DNA of 64,000 bases, taken from IMG/VR virus record IMGVR_UViG_3300002835_000025, one strand, 5' to 3'. This DNA comes from a virus. The translations under genes were made by a program, and so were the position numbers. Numbering within the stretch: the first letter of the stretch is position 1; each line of letters opens with the position of its first letter. This document shows positions 3,027-59,034 of this stretch, one piece after another. The notes under the pieces are model-generated. The model saw nothing but the letters and a program-made list of their open reading frames with translations. It was not told the DNA's origin and did not search any database.

Positions 3027-3054
3027 AGCTCAATTAAATATTGAGCTTTTTTTT
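3027..3054 (+). terminator. Rho-independent terminator closing the tRNA cluster
   Basis: AGCTCAAT-taaat-ATTGAGCT followed by a T run. Confidence 0.85.
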
Positions 3055-3101
3055 GTGTACAATCTGGAAAATTAGTGTATAATGGTACCATACTAACTTA
3101 A

Positions 3102-3509
3102 ATGGGAATTATAATGAATAAGAAATTATCAAAAGAAGCCAAATTGAAACATGATTGGATGGACTTTAATAAACAATACAGAGGCCAACCAAAATTGAAA
3201 ATGACGTTTGACGAATATACTAATTGGATTTTTGGTAAAACGCCTAAACCTAAAGCATCTAACAAAGCAATAATAGTTGGAAGACCTTGTTGGGCAACTA
3301 AAGATAATATACCATCATTGATAGGAAATTCTAAAGCTAGTCTAGGTAAAAATTCAATGGTAGAAAAAGTAACACAAGGAAAAATTACGGGCGATGCTGC
3401 AGAAAAAATTATTCGTAATTCCAAAAGAATAGGAATAGCATATAATAAGGGTAGTTATCAGTATATCACTGATGAAACAGATGCTAAAACTATTGGAAAA
3501 AAGATTTAA
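3102..3509 (+). CDS. Conserved T4-like hypothetical protein
   Basis: Basic ORF ending in an AYNKGSYQYI motif; early promoter upstream. Confidence 0.7.
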   Translation: MGIIMNKKLSKEAKLKHDWMDFNKQYRGQPKLKMTFDEYTNWIFGKTPKPKASNKAIIVGRPCWATKDNIPSLIGNSKASLGKNSMVEKVTQGKITGDAAEKIIRNSKRIGIAYNKGSYQYITDETDAKTIGKKI

Positions 3510-9645: not shown

Positions 9646-10632
9646 ATGATGATTAACGAATTTTATACAAATGCAATCCAATATGGTAATAAAATACTTG
9701 TCAGATCTATTAGAGATGGATTGCCACAAAAGCAGAAAATCGATTTTTACCCTACCTTATATACCACATCAGGAAAATCTTCAGAATCTTCTTCATTCAA
9801 GTCTTTACATGGAGTAGAATTATACGAAATAAAACCGGGTACCATAAATGATTGCAAAGATTTCATAAAAACTTACGAAAATGCGATGCCTGTGTATGGA
9901 CAAACAAACTATGCATATCAATATATTGAAGAAAATTACAAAACCGATATAAAGTTTGATTCTGACTTATTAAAAATCATTGCTATCGATATAGAAACTG
10001 CAAATGAAGAATCTGGTTTTCCTCATCCAAAATACGCTAATGAAGAAATTCTACTAATTACTGTCAGAGATCTTAAAACTAAATCTACAAAAATATTTGG
10101 ATCTAGACCTTATGAAGGAAAACATAAAGCAGATTTTGTCCTTTGTAAAGACGAAAATCAATTACTTCAGCAATTTGTGACTCATTGGCAACAAAGAATC
10201 CCTGACATTATTACGGGTTGGAATATTGACAACTTTGATATTCCGTACATTATTAATAGACTACTAAGAACTATAGGAGAAGATTATGTTAAAAAACTTT
10301 CTCCATGGAATATAGTCAATGAACGTTCTAAAAAGGTTAATAACGTAGAACAACAGACTTATGAAATACTCGGTGTGTCATCTTTAGACTATATTGAACT
10401 CTATAAGAAATATTCTAAAAAAAACCAGGAGTCATACAGACTAGACCATATAGCATTTGTAGAACTTGGTGAAAGAAAACTGGATCATAGCCAATGGAAT
10501 ACTTTCAAGGAATTTTACTCTGGTGAATATGACACTCATAAAATTAGGCCAGAGTATGAAAATTCGGATACAAAGTCTTATAGAAGAACACAGATAAAAT
10601 TAGAGTTAATTAGACGCGGACTAACAGTTTAA
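9646..10632 (+). CDS. 43: DNA polymerase B gp43, N-terminal fragment (N domain plus most of the exonuclease domain)
   Basis: ExoI DIET, Exo[23 protein letters not shown]; stops before ExoIII and ends in a novel basic tail. Confidence 0.93.
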
Positions 10633-11470
10633 ATTGTTTACAGTTTGTGCCATGCCATCTATTATAATTAAGAGGATCAAAACTGCAGTTGCAATATTCA
10701 CAAAGTATTGATTCTTTCTTTTTCATAGGTGGCAATTCTATTTCAGATTTGAATACATTTAAAGAACTGTCAAATATTGTCCAAGTTTTAGAAACTAGTC
10801 TTGTATTTCCTAGTGTTAAATTATATATTTTCTGTGGGCTTATTTTTGTTAATTGATGAAATTCTGATATAGTCATATCAAATACATCTTTAGTTATTAC
10901 ATTTTTAAATTTGAAAATGTCTTTTTTAAACCAAGGTTTACTTTGCTTTGCAATTTTACCAAAATTAATATTTTTACATTCAATAGAACATAATTTCTGG
11001 CTAATATTATGTGTAATTATTTCTTTATTACATACGGAACAATTTATAGTGATATACTTTCTGTTCGATAGCGCTTTCAATGATCTATTCTGTTTAATTA
11101 TTTCTTTAGTACACGATCTAGAACAACAATTACTGCATCCGCTAAATTCTTTATAACAATATTTGCAAATTTTCATTGGCTTAAGTTTTTTAACTCCAGT
11201 ATTTCCATCTCCGCCATCAGTCTTATTTAGGAGTATACCTGTCCCAATGTCTTTTCGCCCATGCCATCTTATCATTCTTCTTTCTATTGCTAATGCTCCA
11301 ACTTCAGATAAATTCGTTTCTAGGAATATTATCTTTGTTCTATCCTTTGGCACAGATATTCCTTTATGAATATCATAGGCTCTAGTATTCTTACCTTTTC
11401 CAATGTAATATGGTGTTCCGTCTGACTTTCTAATATATGCATACACGTAATATATAAGATCGCTGGTCAT
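10610..11470 (-). CDS. Free-standing GIY-YIG homing endonuclease with Cys-rich Zn modules
   Basis: [25 protein letters not shown], CxxC repeats, C-terminal RWHGTNCK; minus-strand TATAAATA at 11554-11561. Confidence 0.88.
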
Positions 11471-11620
11471 GATAGTTCCTTGAATTGTCTTAAGAATGAT
11501 TAGTGCTACTGGAGCCTAGGAACTCGCGAGTAGCTTTTTTAGTTTGTACAATCTATTTATAATATCAATAGATGTTTACTTTTTGTTGTTATTGTGATAT
11601 TATATACATTTATTATAGGA
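11462..11620. promoter_or_regulatory. Conserved endonuclease leader plus back-to-back late (-) and early (+) promoters, copy 1
   Basis: About 100-bp similarity to 54838-54990, with a covarying stem GCTACT/AGTAGC. Confidence 0.75.
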
Positions 11621-11627
11621 GAACATT

Positions 11628-13307
11628 ATGTTTAGTGATATATCAGATAAAGATTTATTAGATGAATATTATAAATTAGATAAAGAAATAAAGCAAGAAT
11701 CATGGACTACATATACTGATTACAATTATCATGACGTATTGCTTATTGATAAATTGGATGAGCAATTAAAGTTTATCGAGTTACAACTCACAATGGCATA
11801 TACTGCCAAGATTAATTATCAAGAAGCATTTAGTCCGGTTAGACTATGGGACTCTACAATCTATCACTATCTTATTAATAAGAACATTATTATTCCTAAC
11901 ATGGACAGAAATGTTAAAGGAGAATTAATGGGTGCCTATGTAAAGACTCCTATTACTGGCATTCATAAATGGATCGCGTCATTCGATTTGGCATCATTAT
12001 ATCCTCATCTAATAATGCAATACAATATCAGCCCAGAAACATTAACAACTACGAAATTGTCATTCACTATTGATAATTTATTAGACAAAATTGAACTTCC
12101 AAAAGTTGATTATGCAATTACTGCTAATGGTTGGTGCTATTCTAAAGATAAGCGCGGATTCCTACCAGAGTTGATGGACACTATGTATGCAAATCGTTCT
12201 ATGCATAAGAAACAAATGTTAAAGCATGAACAGCAATACGAGAGTGATAAGAACAATAAGGAACTATCAAAAGAAATTTCAAGACTTAATAACTTGCAAC
12301 TAGCTCTAAAGGAAACACTAAACAGTGCATACGGAGCTATTGGAATGCCATACTTCCGATATTATGATTTGAGAATGGCAGAATCCATAACATCATCTGG
12401 ACAGTTCTCGATAAAATGGATAGCAAACAGAATTAACAAATATTTGAATTCAGCTTTGAAAACAAATAACACCGATTATATTATTGCTTCGGATACCGAT
12501 TCTGTGTACGTGTCATTGGAAACTTTGGTCGAAACGACTCAAGGTGAAAAATCGACAGAAGATAAAATCAAATTCATGGATTCATTCTGCGGCAAAGTCT
12601 TAACTCCGTTAATAGAAAAATCATATATCGAGTTAGCAGAGTACATGAATGCCTATGAACAAAAGATGCAAATGAAACGAGAAGTACTTGCTGATAAAGG
12701 TTTGTGGACGGCTAAGAAAAGATATGCATTAAGAGTTCATAACTCTGAAGGTGTTCAGTATGATAAACCAAAAATGAAAATTATGGGCATTGAGATTGTA
12801 AAGTCATCGACTCCAACTGCCATAAGAGAAAAATTGAAGTCAACTATTGATATTATTTTTAATGACACTAATTTGGACCTCATAAGATTCATTGAAGACA
12901 CTAGACAGGAATTTAAAACATTAGCAGTAGAAGATATTGCTATTCCAAGTACAGTTAATGGAATGATAAAATTTTCTAATGACAAAACTATTTATTCTAA
13001 AGGCTGTCCGATTTATGTCAGAGGAGGTTTATTATACAATAAAGTTGTTAAAGATATGAAACTTGATCAGAAGTATCCTTTAATAGGCGCAGGAGACAAA
13101 TTAAAATATGTTTATTTGAAACTCCCAAATACTATTAAAGAAGATGTTATTGGATTCCCTACTGAATTACCAATGGAATTCGGATTACATAAGTATATTG
13201 ACTACAACACTCAGTTTGAAAAAGTGTTCTTGAATCCATTAGAAAAGATTGTCGATGCTATTGGTTGGAATTTAAAAGAGCAATCGACTTTAGATGCATT
13301 CTTCTAA
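11628..13307 (+). CDS. 43: DNA polymerase B gp43, C-terminal fragment (ExoIII plus polymerase domains)
   Basis: YNYHD (ExoIII), FDLASLYP, K..LNSAYG, SDTDS, KKRYAL, C-terminal clamp-binding TLDAFF; own promoter and AGGAG RBS. Confidence 0.95.
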   Translation: MFSDISDKDLLDEYYKLDKEIKQESWTTYTDYNYHDVLLIDKLDEQLKFIELQLTMAYTAKINYQEAFSPVRLWDSTIYHYLINKNIIIPNMDRNVKGELMGAYVKTPITGIHKWIASFDLASLYPHLIMQYNISPETLTTTKLSFTIDNLLDKIELPKVDYAITANGWCYSKDKRGFLPELMDTMYANRSMHKKQMLKHEQQYESDKNNKELSKEISRLNNLQLALKETLNSAYGAIGMPYFRYYDLRMAESITSSGQFSIKWIANRINKYLNSALKTNNTDYIIASDTDSVYVSLETLVETTQGEKSTEDKIKFMDSFCGKVLTPLIEKSYIELAEYMNAYEQKMQMKREVLADKGLWTAKKRYALRVHNSEGVQYDKPKMKIMGIEIVKSSTPTAIREKLKSTIDIIFNDTNLDLIRFIEDTRQEFKTLAVEDIAIPSTVNGMIKFSNDKTIYSKGCPIYVRGGLLYNKVVKDMKLDQKYPLIGAGDKLKYVYLKLPNTIKEDVIGFPTELPMEFGLHKYIDYNTQFEKVFLNPLEKIVDAIGWNLKEQSTLDAFF

Positions 13308-13367: not shown

Positions 13368-14231
13368 ATGTCAGAATTATTAGCAAAAATTAAAAAGACT
13401 TGTACCATTAAAGATTCTTCTGTATTGAGTGCATCAAAATATTTTAATAAAAAGGATATGATTCAAACTCAGATTCCTGCATTAAATGTTGCATTATCTG
13501 GAGAATTGGATGGAGGTTTTGTTCCTGGTCTGACATTATGGTGTGGTCCAAGTAAACATTTCAAATCGATGTTTTCATTAATCATGGCTAAAGCTTACAT
13601 GGACAAATATCCTGAAGCAATTATGATTTTTTATGATTGCGAATTTGGAACTCCAACTGCGTATTTTAGTTCTCTTAATATTGATACAAATAGAATTCTT
13701 CATGTTCCTGTAATGAATATGGAAGAATTCAAATTTGATGTCATTAAACAATTAGAAGGACTTGATAGAGGAGATAGGGTAATTTTTATCATTGACTCTC
13801 TAGGTAATATGTCTTCCAAAAAAGAAATGGAAGATGCTATTGATGGAAAATCAGTACAAGATATGTCTAGAGCTAAACAAATGAAATCAATTTTTAGAAT
13901 GATTACGCCATATCTTAATAGATTAGACATTCCAATGGTAGCAGTTAACCACATCTATATGTGTGGAACAGAAGAAATGGAAGTTATTTCGGATAATGGT
14001 GCAATTAGTCTAAAAAATATCACGCCGGGAATGTTAGTGGAAACTACCAATGGACTTCAACCCGTCACTAATGTATTTAAGTATGAGGACGCGTATGTGT
14101 CTGATATTGAAATGGAAGACGGCACAATACTATCATTTACACAAGGACATAGATTCATGGTAAATGGAGAATGGGTCTTTGTAGAGGATCTTCAAGAAGG
14201 AATGGAACTTGATATAAAACCCATCTCGTAA
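13368..14231 (+). CDS. uvsX: UvsX recombinase N-extein (aa 1-198) fused to the split-intein N-fragment (Cys199-287)
   Basis: GPSKHFKS, FYDCEFG, IDSLGN, DMSRAK, then CGTEEMEV...FTQGHRF (intein blocks A and B). Confidence 0.92.
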   Translation: MSELLAKIKKTCTIKDSSVLSASKYFNKKDMIQTQIPALNVALSGELDGGFVPGLTLWCGPSKHFKSMFSLIMAKAYMDKYPEAIMIFYDCEFGTPTAYFSSLNIDTNRILHVPVMNMEEFKFDVIKQLEGLDRGDRVIFIIDSLGNMSSKKEMEDAIDGKSVQDMSRAKQMKSIFRMITPYLNRLDIPMVAVNHIYMCGTEEMEVISDNGAISLKNITPGMLVETTNGLQPVTNVFKYEDAYVSDIEMEDGTILSFTQGHRFMVNGEWVFVEDLQEGMELDIKPIS

Positions 14232-14275
14232 TTGCAATAAATAATTCATATATACATTTTAAAGGGTTTTATATG
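14212..14275 (+). promoter_or_regulatory. RBS/start-sequestering hairpin with an internal late promoter for the HNH gene
   Basis: Perfect 11-bp inverted repeat ATATAAAACCC (14212-14222) / GGGTTTTATAT (14264-14274) covering the ATG; AATAAATA at 14236-14243 lies between the arms. Confidence 0.75.
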
Positions 14276-15073
14276 AATTATTTGAAACATTACGAATTAT
14301 TAATTACTAGAGCAAAATCTAGAAGTAAAATTTTAGAGTATATTGAGAAACATCATATAGTTCCAAAGTGTTTAGGTGGAAATAATGATATTGACAATAT
14401 TGCTGAACTAACACCAGAGGAACATTATTTTGCCCATCAACTACTAGCAAAAATATATCCAGATAATTGCGGGTTAATTAGTGCATGTAAATTGATGGGA
14501 GGAAGTATTTCGGGAAAAAGAAGTAATAATAAAATCTATGGGTGGATAAGAAGAAAATCTAATATATTGATGGGACAGTCAATTAGGAAACTTCATATTG
14601 ATAAAAGAGATATGAAGTCTATATCATTAGGATTTGAAAATTATATTGATATGTCTAAGTCTATATGGGATTTATTCATAACCCATAAATTACATTATAC
14701 TTCTATAGAAGAAAAATTTGGGGTTAGTCGGCATTTTATAAAAAGATCTTTAGAAGTATATGCTAAAGATAATGACTTATTAGATGAGTTAGCTCAAGGT
14801 TATTATGATCTTAAGTCAAGCAGTCAAAAACTAGGCAGATCTAAATTTACTGAAGATCAAGAAAGCAATAGAATAACAGCATTAAAAAATATTGACTATG
14901 CCGCTAGATCATTAAAAACCGGTTCTAGAAAAGGATCATTAAATCCAACATTTGGTAAAACTTGGTCTCATATTAAAATGATGTGCCCATATTGTAATAA
15001 AGAAGTCGGCGGAAAGCGTTGGCATTTTGATAACTGCAGGAGTAAAAATGAAAATCAAATCAATAAAATTTAA
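14273..15073 (+). CDS. HNH homing endonuclease (MobE-like) between the split-intein halves
   Basis: EKHHIVPKCLGG.N..DN...LTPEEHYFAHQLL; C-terminal CPYC...RWHFDNC. Confidence 0.9.
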   Translation: MNYLKHYELLITRAKSRSKILEYIEKHHIVPKCLGGNNDIDNIAELTPEEHYFAHQLLAKIYPDNCGLISACKLMGGSISGKRSNNKIYGWIRRKSNILMGQSIRKLHIDKRDMKSISLGFENYIDMSKSIWDLFITHKLHYTSIEEKFGVSRHFIKRSLEVYAKDNDLLDELAQGYYDLKSSSQKLGRSKFTEDQESNRITALKNIDYAARSLKTGSRKGSLNPTFGKTWSHIKMMCPYCNKEVGGKRWHFDNCRSKNENQINKI

Positions 15074-15656
15074 TACACGTAAGGCAGATGTTTACGACAT
15101 TGAAACTCCTACACACGATTATATATTAAAAAACGGAATAATTTCTCATAATACACAGGAGCTTTACAGCAAACCTGTAGTTTCTGGTGGAACTGGTGTT
15201 TACTTATCTGCTGATAATATTTTTATTCTTGGAAGACAACAAGAAAAAGAAGGAACAGAAGTCATTGGTTATAACTTTATCATCAATGTAGAAAAATCAA
15301 GATATGTAAGAGAAAAATCAAAAATTCCAATTAGTGTTCTATTTGAAGGTGGTGTTTCTAAATGGTCAGGATTATTAGAAATGGCATTAGAATCTGGTCA
15401 TGTCATTAAGCCAAATAATGGTTGGTATTCTAGAGTAGATAAAATTACTGGTGAGCTTGAAGATAAACGATATAGATTAAAAGATACTATCAATAAAGAA
15501 TTCTGGCTTCCTATATTAGCAAAAAAGGATTTCCAACAATGGATAAAAGAATCTTATAAATTGACAGAATCAGAAATGCTATCTGATTCAGTAATTGAAT
15601 CAGAATTATCAAAGGTTGAATTAGAGGATTTGGAAAAAATTTCTGAATTAGTTTAA
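15048..15656 (+). CDS. uvsX: Split-intein C-fragment (35 aa) fused to the UvsX C-extein
   Basis: CAGGAG RBS; MKIKSIK...VYDIET..HDYILKNGIISHN|T, then TQELYSKPVVSGGTG and VEKSRYVREKSK. Confidence 0.92.
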   Translation: MKIKSIKFNTRKADVYDIETPTHDYILKNGIISHNTQELYSKPVVSGGTGVYLSADNIFILGRQQEKEGTEVIGYNFIINVEKSRYVREKSKIPISVLFEGGVSKWSGLLEMALESGHVIKPNNGWYSRVDKITGELEDKRYRLKDTINKEFWLPILAKKDFQQWIKESYKLTESEMLSDSVIESELSKVELEDLEKISELV

Positions 15657-35031: not shown

Positions 35032-35164
35032 CCCAGTCAGTCTGGGTTTCTTTTTGTTTCTTATCTATTGACACTCTTTTATAAATAAAAGTGTACTATT
35101 ATTGAAATCTTGATATAATAGACTCATACCAAATAAATATTTTAAACGTAACTTAGGAATAAAA

Positions 35165-35446
35165 ATGAAAACTTTTAATCAATTCGCATTAGAACTTATT
35201 GAAGCAAAATTACCTATAACTTCATCAGAAGATGAACTTACTTGGGATCCTAAATCTCGTCAAACTACATTGTCGCCAAAGCAAGCACTTGCTTATGCAG
35301 TTTCTCAATTATCGCCTGAAGAAGTTGCTGCAGTACTTGCTGCAGAAAAATTAAAAAAGATGTCAAGAACACCTCAGCAAAAAGCATTTGATAAGAAAAT
35401 GGCTAAACTTGCCAAAAATCACGAAAACGATACTAGATTAAAATAA
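35165..35446 (+). CDS. Hypothetical protein with a capsid-targeting-like N-terminus
   Basis: MKTFNQFALELIEA. Confidence 0.65.
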   Translation: MKTFNQFALELIEAKLPITSSEDELTWDPKSRQTTLSPKQALAYAVSQLSPEEVAAVLAAEKLKKMSRTPQQKAFDKKMAKLAKNHENDTRLK

Positions 35447-35510
35447 TTAAGTTTTCAATATAAGTTATTATAATTAGCCGGTAATTATACCGGCTTTTTA
35501 TTGTCCGGTG

Positions 35511-35861
35511 AAAATAATAGTGTACTATTATTGAAATCTTGATATAATAGACTCATACCAAATAACCAATGAGGAATTACACATGAATAAAGAACAACAG
35601 ATCCAAACCCTTCTAGATACTTTGTTTGAAAATGCAAAAGAATCATCTCAAAACGCTAGTTGGAATATTGATAAAACGGTGAACTATGCTTATGTTACTG
35701 GTTATTATGAATCTTCATTCAGCAATCTTCTGAAAAGTATGAATCTTACCAAAGCACAGATGGATATCTTATCACAAAGATGTGAAATTAAATAAAATAA
35801 TAGTGTACTATTATTGAAATCTTGATATAATAGACTCATACCAAATAACCAATGAGGAATT
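35511..35861 (+). repeat. Two identical 68-bp promoter+RBS cassettes (35511-35578, 35794-35861); a 47-bp third copy at 35090-35136
   Basis: aaaataatagtgtactattattgaaatcttgatataatagactcataccaaataaccaatgaggaatt is repeated exactly. Confidence 0.92.
35583..35795 (+). CDS. Hypothetical early protein
   Basis: ORF bracketed by the two identical promoter cassettes. Confidence 0.7.
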   Translation: MNKEQQIQTLLDTLFENAKESSQNASWNIDKTVNYAYVTGYYESSFSNLLKSMNLTKAQMDILSQRCEIK

Positions 35862-46639: not shown

Positions 46640-46688
46640 ACATCCTTGTCCATGCATATCCCTATGCAGTTCCATTATTGTATTTATA
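46637..46688 (-). ncRNA. Candidate late small RNA with four ANGGA (CsrA/RsmA-type) sites
   Basis: Minus strand: TATAAATA-caataATGGAactGCATAGGGATATGCATGGACAAGGATGTtc. Confidence 0.45.
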
Positions 46689-51457: not shown

Positions 51458-51554
51458 TGCCCCGAAAATAATTTGATTATTTTGAATTCTTTTGTGTACT
51501 ATTACTGAAACCATGATATAATAGACTCATACCAACTAATAGAGGATTTATATC

Positions 51555-53774: not shown

Positions 53775-54075
53775 GCGATTTAATCCAACTAGTAAGCAAA
53801 AAAGAAAAACCATCTGATGCTGAATTCCAAAAGCAACTAGATGATGAATACTATGAACAGATGACTGATCTTAGAGATGAAATAGATTTGGCTCTCACGT
53901 TAGCATATACCAAAGATGGATTACTATTGACGGTATCTAATGGAGTTGATTCAAAAACTGCTCTTTGGATGATTGAAGAGTTTCGGATGAATTTGTTAAC
54001 TGGTTCATTTAACGATTATAAATAAGGAATAAAAATGCAAACTGGGAATATTACAGTTCCCAGTTTCCTAATTAT

Positions 54076-54846
54076 CTAAAAATATTGTTTAAATTCAGGA
54101 TATAATCTAGAAATACATGGTTTAGTATAAGTCTTTCTAGTTTCAATAATCGATAAGAATTTTGGTTGAGGAATTCCTTTCTTTGCTGCAGATATATTTG
54201 GTTGCTTCTTGCCTTTCTTTGTGGCGGATAATTTGTTACCAAATCCTTCTGGTTTAGGAATGCCAGTTTTTACATAAGATAATTTTGCACCAAATCCTTC
54301 TGGTTTAGGAATGCCTTTAGTACTAGATGATAATTTTGCACCAAATCCTTCTGGTTTAGGAATTCCTTTAGTACTAGATGATAATTTTGCACCAAATCCT
54401 TCTGGTTTAGGAATTCCTTTATTTTTAGAAATTCCTCTATTTCCAGGTTTTCCTTTATTATGAGCCGGTTTTCCTTTTGCTGAAGCAGATCGTTTAGCAT
54501 TAGATTCTTCTGATTGTTTCTTGCCAGAAGTAGTAAATCTGATTTTACTACCGTGATGACATCTTCTGTTAAGCATCAATGGATTTTTAAGTTCTTGGTA
54601 TATTAGAAACTGTTCTAGGTCGTATGCCTCGAGTGGATCAACAAATTCCTGGATGATGGTATAGTTAAATTCTTGGAATCTTGGTTCAACTGTTTTTGAT
54701 GATGTAAAATAGTCAATACCTAAATCCTGATTTGCTGGGACTTTATTGGCTTTACGAAATCCAAAATAAAATTCGCCAGTAGTTGGATTGTCTAGTCTAT
54801 AGACATAGGATAATACTGGTTCTTGATATATACTTGTGCTGGTCAT
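54076..54846 (-). CDS. Free-standing GIY-YIG-like homing endonuclease with tandem NUMOD3-like repeats
   Basis: YVYRL.N..TGEFYFG, YFTSSK, LN; 4 x 17-aa KGIPKPEGFGAKLS repeats (51 bp each). Confidence 0.8.
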   Translation of the reverse strand: MTSTSIYQEPVLSYVYRLDNPTTGEFYFGFRKANKVPANQDLGIDYFTSSKTVEPRFQEFNYTIIQEFVDPLEAYDLEQFLIYQELKNPLMLNRRCHHGSKIRFTTSGKKQSEESNAKRSASAKGKPAHNKGKPGNRGISKNKGIPKPEGFGAKLSSSTKGIPKPEGFGAKLSSSTKGIPKPEGFGAKLSYVKTGIPKPEGFGNKLSATKKGKKQPNISAAKKGIPQPKFLSIIETRKTYTKPCISRLYPEFKQYF

Positions 54847-54990
54847 GATAGTTCCTTGAATTATTGATAGAATGATTAGTGCTAGTGGGATGTAGGAGTC
54901 CGCGACTAGCTTTTTGTTTGTATGATCTATTTATAAGATTTAGATGTTGACATTTTTAGAATAGATGATATAATAGATTTTTATCATGAG
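54838..54990. promoter_or_regulatory. Conserved endonuclease leader plus back-to-back promoters, copy 2
   Basis: Similar to 11462-11620; stem GCTAGT/ACTAGC; TATAAATA on the minus strand at 54928-54935; GTTGAC..TATAAT on the plus strand. Confidence 0.75.
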
Positions 54991-54998
54991 GAAATAAA

Positions 54999-55232
54999 AT
55001 GCAGGTACTTGGCAAAAACGTATTAGTGTTAAAACAGAAACTAGAATATACTGGATTGATTCAAGGTGTAGAGTCTGATGATAATATTAGAGCAAAGGCA
55101 ATGAATCTTGGTGATGACGTTACCCTAGTGGAATTAGGTAATATTCTTATCCTTAACTGGAAGAAAGCTAAATGGGTATCAGGTGAGTTGTATGTTATCC
55201 ATGAAGATGAAATAGCCGCAATTATTGAATAA
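54999..55232 (+). CDS. GroES/Cpn10-like co-chaperonin
   Basis: LGKNVLV...GLI...GDDV..VELG....IHEDEIAAII. Confidence 0.65.
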   Translation: MQVLGKNVLVLKQKLEYTGLIQGVESDDNIRAKAMNLGDDVTLVELGNILILNWKKAKWVSGELYVIHEDEIAAIIE

Positions 55233-57845: not shown

Positions 57846-58751
57846 ATGAAAACATTTTACGAATATCTAACAGAATCTCCGCAAATACCGTCTAATTTTG
57901 CTCTCACATTAGATTCACTTACTCCAAAGAATAAGGATAAATTTGATGCGGCATTAATTACTCTTAAAGCCGCTATGGAACAAGGAAGCATACGTAAAAC
58001 AGATTTAGATAATATCAAATCTGTTTTCAATAATTCATGCGAGGCTACTTGGGAAAAACATTACCAATATGCTTATCTTAACCAACCTCGCGATGTTAGA
58101 GATGCTGCTCCTCATGCTAAAGAAGAGGAAGACATTTATTATAAAGCCAAAAATTTTAGAAATATGGATGGCATTATCAAGAAATATTCTAAATTTGCAA
58201 ATACGTCTCAATTGATAGGATATGCTATTAGAATTGCCTCTGAGTATGCTTCACTTAAAGATATAATGGATCATTTGGCAACTAATATTGTTAAAGGCAA
58301 AGCTCCTTCATTAAACATTAAGCCTATTAATCCTAATCAAGTAAGAGGAACTTGTGGGTGGTGTTTACGTGATATTGCTATTGATAAAAGTGGTCTAATG
58401 TCTCACCATGGGTTTACAAGACCTGGAGTCGGATATCAAACACAATCATGCGCTGGTGTAAATTATAAAAATTTAGAAGTATCTCGAGATGGATTGAAAG
58501 CCAGAATTAAAGTCACTGAACAAGAAAAGTCTAATTTAGAATCTCGTTCGAAAGACCTGCCGAAAGTTATAACTCTTAATGTACGAAAAACAGGAAGTCG
58601 CGATATCATTACCATAGGAAAAGAAGATCCTAATTGGTCAAAAGCATATCACTCAACTGAAGTAAATCTCGAATCTGAGATTCGCAGTATAACTAAAGAA
58701 CTTGAGCAATTAAATCAAACGTTGATAAAGTGGGAAATAAAAACAAAATAA
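57846..58751 (+). CDS. Hypothetical protein with a capsid-targeting-like N-terminus and a CxxC...HHG...C metal motif
   Basis: MKTFYEYLTE; GTCGWC..MSHHGF..CAG. Confidence 0.7.
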   Translation: MKTFYEYLTESPQIPSNFALTLDSLTPKNKDKFDAALITLKAAMEQGSIRKTDLDNIKSVFNNSCEATWEKHYQYAYLNQPRDVRDAAPHAKEEEDIYYKAKNFRNMDGIIKKYSKFANTSQLIGYAIRIASEYASLKDIMDHLATNIVKGKAPSLNIKPINPNQVRGTCGWCLRDIAIDKSGLMSHHGFTRPGVGYQTQSCAGVNYKNLEVSRDGLKARIKVTEQEKSNLESRSKDLPKVITLNVRKTGSRDIITIGKEDPNWSKAYHSTEVNLESEIRSITKELEQLNQTLIKWEIKTK

Positions 58752-59034
58752 TAGTGTACTTTAATATGGTTCTTGATATAATAGAACCATATTAACTTAC
58801 CGAGGATTTTATCATGGCTACTAAATTATTCAAAGTTTCTAAAGAAGGTTCAATAACTATCAAACTGACAAACTTGGAAACTAATCAAACTCTTTCTATC
58901 ATTGTTGATGTTGAAGGAAATGACCCAATTGCTACAATAATCAGAGAATCATATTTCTTCAAAAAAGCTAAAGGATATAAATATGATGATTCTTCAGCAA
59001 TATTAACCGTAAATTACAAATAAGGAAACCAAAA

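Follow-up and report, generated by a model that had tools for sequence, protein, structure and literature searches.

We confirm that a portable cassette of ~125 bp stands at the start of many unrelated endonuclease genes in uncultured T4-like phages. From modelling of its structure and promoters, we lean towards the view that it encodes a ~78-nt cis-antisense RNA which would cover the Shine-Dalgarno sequence and the AUG of the endonuclease gene, with two convergent late promoters, and would hold the nuclease down. We infer both that this antisense RNA is made and that it represses.

The window, that is, the whole 64-kb stretch of DNA that was analysed, is part of an uncultured T4-like phage, a DNA polymerase half of which is 53% identical to its cyanomyovirus counterparts. 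Near and distant BLAST searches of 50,697 cultured phage records returned no copy of the cassette and no close DNA relative of the window. The sole match with E<1e-4, in Proteus phage phiP4-3, spans just the AT-rich back-to-back promoter stretch and sits between two small hypothetical genes, without an endonuclease link. Nearly all genes in the 64 kb are on the plus strand, and on the minus strand only two genes are convincing, both of them endonuclease genes; two further long minus-strand ORFs overlap plus-strand ORFs. The genes at the two loci are as follows.

9646-10632, plus strand: gp43A, a DNA polymerase half of 328 aa, upstream of endonuclease gene 1
10610-11470, minus strand: endonuclease gene 1, GIY-YIG-like, 286 aa, beginning MTSDLIY (phrog_15526, phrog_10829)
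11628-13307, plus strand: gp43B, a DNA polymerase half of 559 aa, on the other side of endonuclease gene 1
54039-54066, minus strand: terminator of endonuclease gene 2, from the terminator scan
54076-54846, minus strand: endonuclease gene 2, Seg-type, 256 aa, beginning MTSTSIY (phrog_314, homing endonuclease, E 1.6e-13)
54999-55232, plus strand: small ORF beyond the early promoter of copy 2

A weak PDB match (E 0.029) connects endonuclease gene 1 with a GIY-YIG protein, and a relative matches both phrog_15526 and phrog_314, which links the families of gene 1 to family 314. The 3' end of gene 1 overlaps the stop region of gp43A by 23 nt. On the PHROG polymerase profile, both polymerase halves cover positions ~300-331. 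We considered a split intein at the break in gp43 and rejected it, as the two halves sum to a normal length and leave no room for an intein. The small ORF at 54999-55232 had been labelled groES in the initial annotation, a label that we could not confirm because the ORF has no Pfam or PHROG match. The proteins of endonuclease genes 1 and 2 show no BLASTP similarity to each other and the cassette is common to both, in agreement with the earlier view that two different homing endonuclease genes are marked alike at their heads. Within endonuclease gene 2 there are four tandem 51-nt repeats (54227-54430), the unit of which encodes 17 residues including GIPKPEGFG and is possibly, judging from its sequence, a NUMOD3-like DNA-binding module.

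A shared leader of about 100 nt had been described ahead of both minus-strand endonuclease genes, and it is indeed present, with the same order of elements at both. On the minus strand this order is TATAAATA, an A-run, a 30-nt hairpin, the box ACTAATCATTCT, a variable spacer, and then TTCAAGGAACTATCATGACCAGC. The two regions are 79% identical over 90 nt (repeat search, family D10) and contain an identical 23-mer comprising the Shine-Dalgarno sequence, ATG, ACC and AGC, which occurs exactly twice in the window as compared with 0 expected occurrences in shuffles. The elements of the sense strand and the outward promoters behind them are located as follows.

11505-11534: copy 1 hairpin, 30 nt
11554-11561, minus strand: copy 1 sense late promoter TATAAATA, from sequence reading
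11574-11603, plus strand: copy 1 outward early promoter, GTTTAC, 18-nt spacer, TATTAT with TG, before gp43B
54881-54910: copy 2 hairpin, 30 nt
54928-54935, minus strand: copy 2 sense late promoter TATAAATA, from sequence reading
54947-54974, plus strand: copy 2 outward early promoter, TTGACA, 16-nt spacer, TATAAT with TG (12/12), before ORF 54999-55232

The consensus scan scored the copy 1 early promoter as TTTACT with a 17-nt spacer, 9/12 (11575-11603). There are only three minus-strand occurrences of TATAAATA in the window, two of which head the endonuclease genes; the third, at 46688, has no endonuclease gene or cassette after it. The covariance model R2 finds exactly two cassette copies in the window.

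In order to gather further copies, IMG/VR phage contigs were searched with pattern scans and a first covariance model, R1. A strict-pattern metagenome scan gave only 4 matches, one of them by chance, and a 14-mer scan gave mostly chance matches, which were filtered. We obtained 44 distinct cassette copies in more than 50 viral contigs, with up to three per contig; six were found by the covariance model alone, and most were harvested with patterns fixing ATGACCAGC or the box. Every complete downstream ORF (39/39) matches an endonuclease PHROG, and these include Seg/GIY-YIG and HNH types, so that the motif is tied, as had been proposed, to endonuclease genes of different families. The cassette-headed proteins have in common only their first seven residues, MTSxxIY, ahead of the catalytic domain, and the homology of the cassette ends abruptly after codon 7-8, before unrelated gene bodies. 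In one contig (L133, 1649-2611, minus strand) an endonuclease remnant forms an in-frame fusion with a head-closure protein domain (residues 177-319) and still has a weak cassette (35.8 bits). An HNH-type ORF in the window, at 14273-15073 on the plus strand between two plus-strand ORFs (13368-15656), is without a cassette; AATAAATA lies 29 nt upstream of it.

The compensatory stem changes noted between copies 1 and 2 are real, and they extend to the family. Among 10 copies, 97% of hairpin cells pair, with changes on both sides in 9/10 pairs, and pairing falls to 27-48% when the partners are slid. For the whole plus-strand structure in 43 copies, 99.5% of cells are paired and double changes are seen in 11/18 pairs, as compared with 22-50% paired in slid controls. 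Covariation of the hairpin is thus strong, with 9-10/10 pairs compensatory and pairing far above the level in shuffled or slid controls. What the initial annotation called a 'fixed CGC/C internal loop' is instead a single pair that covaries (G-C, A-U or A-C), with an invariant one-base bulge on either side. The picture of a self-contained, portable, covarying cassette is therefore borne out by the 44 copies, the covariation and the link to endonucleases in 39/39 ORFs. An Rfam comparison, also proposed there, found no match to the cassette: the window yields tRNAs only, and at E up to 10 around both copies, on both strands, nothing relevant appears.

The same alignment indicates which strand carries the fold. 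On the gene strand, the hairpins contain 423 Watson-Crick cells, 0 G-U and 7 A-C; the 7 A-C cells, which come mostly from independent hairpins, are therefore G-U wobbles on the plus strand. Additionally, RNAalifold of the plus strand gives a second helix of 8 bp, here called helix 1, between the complement of ATGACCAG and the complement of the CTAATCAT box. It includes two invariant G-U pairs on the plus strand, which are A-C mismatches on the gene strand, and one of the two becomes G-C in nine copies. In two copies found by the model alone (L152, L166), ATGTCCAGC occurs together with CTAAACAT, a compensatory change in this helix; the covariation of helix 1 comes from few such events, and part of its invariance reflects ascertainment because the harvest patterns fixed ATGACCAGC or the box.

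Folding energies point the same way. The plus-strand RNA is the stabler one in 43/43 copies, at a mean of -21.9 kcal/mol as compared with -13.5 for the sense strand; its minimum-energy fold includes the 5' helix in 40/43. In the window the plus strand forms two stem-loops in each copy, at -23.3 kcal/mol (z -2.3) against -12.6 for the sense strand in copy 1, and at -24.2 kcal/mol (z -2.8) against -10.7 in copy 2; in both plus-strand folds the apex of stem-loop 1 is an anti-Shine-Dalgarno sequence. A stable conserved secondary structure, with two helices and a wobble count of 7 to 0, is thus found on the antisense strand. The energy of the hairpin by itself separates the strands poorly (-10.2 versus -10.6 kcal/mol), and z-scores of the sense leader are unremarkable, so stability alone is insufficient to flag the leader. 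On the plus strand the hairpin has the form of an intrinsic terminator, with ~-10 kcal/mol directly before a U-run: at least 5 T occur in the 8 nt after it in 33/44 copies (T6 and T5 in the window copies), and 11/44 have a weak U-tract only. A simple terminator scan misses it because of the bulges.

These results bear directly on the model of the initial annotation, in which the endonuclease mRNA itself is where the hairpin and box work, either by stabilising its 5' end or by binding a common protein regulator. In favour of this model, all copies retain the hairpin on the mRNA; the late promoter lies 2-8 nt before it in about one third of them, where it would therefore be 5'-terminal on the mRNA; and the two invariant bulges around a covarying pair resemble a recognition feature. 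A comparable hairpin lies just upstream of the ribosome site in seg43(25) of Aeromonas phage 25 (PMC2988022). Against the model stand the hairpin wobbles, 7 to 0 against the gene strand, the two A-C mismatches in the pairing of box and start region, and a sense fold that is weaker by 8 kcal/mol and weaker in 43/43 copies. None of the minimum-energy folds sequesters the ribosome site. The pairing of the box with the start region, which had been claimed for the mRNA, is absent from the sense minimum-energy fold of either copy; in copy 2 the box and start region are wholly unpaired there, and good pairing is found on the opposite strand only. Because BLASTP finds no relationship between the proteins, each endonuclease is unlikely to regulate its own expression. 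We therefore consider a structured cis-leader or autoregulatory site on the mRNA not to be the best reading, since the conserved fold has been selected on the strand opposite the endonuclease mRNA, and we regard the model as a whole as distinctly unlikely. Watson-Crick pairs preserve the hairpin on the mRNA too, and a role on the sense strand may therefore persist.

The plus-strand structures of the two window copies, taken as predicted antisense RNAs, and the promoter-like octamers before them are located as follows.

11449-11456, plus strand: copy 1 antisense octamer AATATATA, in codons 5-8, 6/8 matches to TATAAATA
11462-11540, plus strand: copy 1 predicted antisense RNA, ~79 nt (model R2, 91.6 bits)
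11463-11470 with 11496-11503, plus strand: 5' and 3' strands of copy 1 stem-loop 1, starting after the +1 G
11505-11534, plus strand: copy 1 stem-loop 2 and terminator, with the U-run at 11535-11540
54825-54832, plus strand: copy 2 antisense octamer GATATATA, in codons 5-8, in the fixed register
54838-54915, plus strand: copy 2 predicted antisense RNA, ~78 nt (model R2, 96.5 bits)
54839-54846 with 54872-54879, plus strand: strands of copy 2 stem-loop 1
54881-54910, plus strand: copy 2 stem-loop 2 and terminator, with the U-run at 54911-54915

The predicted RNAs span the AUG, the AAGGA and the leader of both genes. The register of the octamer is fixed: it is followed by 5 nt, then by G, then by the first helix. 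Across the 44 copies the octamer is TATAAATA in 19, TATATATA in 7, GATATATA in 6 and AATAAATA in 5, and NATAWATA stands at the fixed plus-strand register in 42/44 copies; of the 15 copies not selected on the motif, 13 have it. The variant AATAAATA is known from T4, where it accounts for 9 of the 50 listed late-promoter sites, and the box, lying about one helical turn ahead of the start, is all that a T4 late promoter requires (PMC2988020). By its spacing, the octamer places the predicted antisense start at the complement of codon 3. Counting against a promoter here, the window octamers AATATATA and GATATATA each differ from TATAAATA at two positions, and because of these mismatches they are only candidate promoters.

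Three other readings of the plus strand were rejected. A sigma-70 promoter for the antisense RNA would have no conserved -35, and its -10 would miss the final T; a plus-strand mini-ORF is not conserved and has no ribosome site; and a gp43-type translational operator is contradicted by a loop that is not conserved and by the presence of the same cassette at a non-polymerase locus.

Taken together, the explanation that we favour is a two-strand control cassette of ~125 bp that would travel with free-standing homing endonuclease genes. The T4-type late promoter TATAAATA would start the endonuclease mRNA on the gene strand. A second promoter of late type, within codons 5-8 but on the other strand, would give rise to an antisense RNA of ~78 nt that begins opposite codon 3. 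Its stem-loop 1, formed by the complement of ATGACCAG and the complement of the CTAATCAT box, would display the anti-Shine-Dalgarno at the apex, and its stem-loop 2, the covarying hairpin, would end the RNA together with the U-run. Over the stretch from the hairpin to codon 3, the antisense RNA would match the complement of the mRNA without a single exception, and the duplex may block ribosome binding or mark the mRNA for cleavage, so that a potentially harmful nuclease is kept low. In most copies the same terminator would also stop host-gene transcription running antisense through the endonuclease gene, and the early promoter would restart transcription. Under this explanation unrelated proteins would all begin with MTSxxIY because those codons carry the antisense promoter, the start site and one strand of helix 1, and the 'box' would be invariant because it is the other strand of helix 1. 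Met-Thr-Ser would be the footprint of helix 1 and Ile-Tyr that of the antisense promoter; residues 4 and 5, in the spacer from promoter to start, vary freely. The conservation of Ile-Tyr could in principle reflect the protein instead. The invariant bulges of the hairpin go beyond what a plain terminator explains and could be a protein handle, and a version of the earlier idea of an mRNA regulator therefore stays alive.

Genomic context brings in a second alternative, in which the plus-strand fold is nothing other than the 3' end of host read-through transcripts, serving as their terminator and protecting them, followed by a restart promoter, a junction like the PeSL cassettes already established in T4-like phages (PMC2839356, PMC4122927), with no dedicated small RNA. 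The initial annotation had described promoters placed back to back; an outward early promoter does stand behind both window copies, but it falls outside the invariant core. Behind the hairpin there is a strong early promoter in 24/42 copies as compared with 3.7% of random windows, which supports that back-to-back description, and homology in this promoter (copies 1 and 2 and one further copy, L001) is limited to the -35 region and to a subfamily. The early promoter is a frequent neighbour of the cassette and is not core. Neighbouring genes run opposite to the endonuclease gene in 27/32 callable copies upstream and 23/28 downstream; where the cassette gene is antisense to its neighbours, the terminator must therefore also stop host transcripts through the endonuclease gene. 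These counts, the common U-runs, the position of the endonuclease genes as the only convincing minus-strand genes in 64 kb and the degenerate antisense octamers of the window are all in keeping with simple insulation. Five copies with co-oriented neighbours (in L002, L125, L152 and L166), however, keep the entire plus-strand structure, with both helices, the octamer and the T-rich tail (the second copy of L152 has only 4 T in the 8 nt after the hairpin), and in these five copies host read-through can be no source of an antisense transcript. One copy, L123, keeps both helices without a U-run or an early promoter. Insulation also leaves unexplained helix 1, the fixed-register TATAAATA inside the ORF and the invariant first three codons. 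We consider it unlikely as the full explanation. It had also been suggested that the cassette 'rescues' the gene that it interrupts, which would account for the split of gp43, and this is a plausible inference.

Other promoter-like sequences were seen in the window. A perfect TATAAATA lies at 54017-54024 (plus strand), just upstream of the 3' end of endonuclease gene 2, and a 10/12 sigma-70-like promoter (TTTACA, 17-nt spacer, TATTAT) lies at 10637-10665 (plus strand), just after the gp43A stop and within the 3' end of endonuclease gene 1. Each of the two is directed antisense across the full length of its endonuclease gene, with the cassette terminator ahead. A repeated early-promoter family, GTGTAC-N17-TGATATAAT (repeat families D1-D8; for example 3043-3110, 35079-35858, 51482-51549 and 58742-58809), often follows straight after a T-run, and its -35 resembles TGTACA, not TTGACA.

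The way in which copies are built would fit a role in recombination. The inner and outer halves of the stem re-assort among copies, homology stops abruptly after codon 7-8 before unrelated genes, and several copies per genome are possible. The cassette might accordingly be kept for its homology, used to swap endonuclease bodies in the style of PeSLs, with folds that are incidental to the promoters and terminator. Conservation driven by homology predicts no structure-preserving double substitutions, no wobble bias towards one strand and no invariant bulges, and as a sufficient account we judge it very improbable; it is compatible with the antisense explanation, rather than an alternative to it. 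The antisense RNA could also act more widely. Its 5' 25 nt and the box are identical between copies, so it could pair across copies. In an extension of the antisense explanation that we put forward as speculative and rather improbable, each antisense RNA would pair with all cassette-bearing mRNAs, including those of a co-infecting phage, in a trans-acting network in which the bulges bind a dedicated RNA-binding protein. If true, this would be a shared brake on selfish nucleases of unrelated families, or a means by which a resident element silences incoming rivals.

In IS10/Tn10 RNA-OUT/RNA-IN and in the type I toxin-antitoxin system SymR/SymE, a short, stable cis-antisense RNA covers the ribosome site and start codon. 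RNA-OUT-type antisense RNAs start from a promoter that lies within the first part of the nuclease or transposase gene, at its 5' end. The RNA predicted here is similar in that it covers the start of its own enzyme's gene and would have its promoter within that gene. It differs from those systems in that its host is a phage homing endonuclease gene, both promoters are T4-late-like, the cassette is portable between unrelated endonuclease families, and there is no sequence or Rfam relationship.

An antisense RNA opposite a free-standing homing endonuclease gene has been seen once in a T4-like phage, in cyanophage S-PM2, where CfrI is ~225 nt long and locus-specific, linking psbA to the endonuclease gene (Millard et al. 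2010, cited in PMC2984593). The two are alike in lying opposite a free-standing endonuclease gene of a T4-like phage, whereas CfrI was seen experimentally and the cassette RNA is predicted. Model R2 finds no cassette copy in the whole S-PM2 record (best E 1.8).

PeSLs are conserved regulatory cassettes of ~100 bp in T4-like phages. Each combines a promoter and a terminator stem-loop with a Shine-Dalgarno sequence and a start codon; the genes behind them are unrelated, and PeSLs are believed to act in modular shuffling. Their stem-loop lies within or adjoins a sigma-70 promoter that serves early ORFans in the direction of transcription (PMC2839356, PMC4122927). The present cassette resembles them in that its plus strand has a terminator and then an early promoter in most copies. 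It is set apart by its late-type promoters, its second helix, its restriction to endonuclease genes and its usual antisense orientation to neighbours; its stem-loop lies 30-40 nt before the early promoter, which is missing in some copies, and the cassette does not fall within the PeSL group.

Hairpins and TATAAATA are known upstream of the phage endonuclease genes I-TevI, segB, mobE of Aeh1 and seg43(25) (PMC2988022). Dassa et al. 2009 described 'fractured gene' loci, with endonuclease genes splitting host genes including gene 43 (PMC2988022, PMC2677866), and conserved motifs common to different endonuclease types in environmental phage DNA (PMC2677866). Our cassette is like all of these in having a late promoter and a conserved hairpin 5' of a free-standing endonuclease gene. 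The I-TevI/mobE type of hairpin hides the ribosome site of the mRNA in its stem and contains the late promoter, from which late transcripts escape sequestration (PMC2988022), whereas in the cassette 25-40 nt separate the hairpin from the ribosome site on its 3' side, the late promoter lies upstream of the hairpin and the fold fits the other strand. The Shine-Dalgarno sequence is unpaired in 3/4 minimum-energy folds, and in the 87-nt fold of copy 1 it takes part only in a weak 5-bp local helix; the cassette hairpin is thus not of the sequestering kind. We found no published description of the cassette.

Homing endonucleases need enough expression to spread and not enough to damage the host phage. 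They are known to be controlled by hairpins that conceal the ribosome site, by late promoters and by autorepression. If our explanation is true, the cassette would be a further, apparently undescribed layer of control, a portable antisense RNA common to GIY-YIG and HNH enzymes. It would account for the insertion of such genes, antisense, into essential genes such as that of DNA polymerase without upset, for the N-terminal MTSxxIY common to unrelated nucleases, and for the swapping of endonuclease bodies behind a common head. The cassette also provides a signature of sequence and structure for annotating free-standing endonuclease genes in phage metagenomes.
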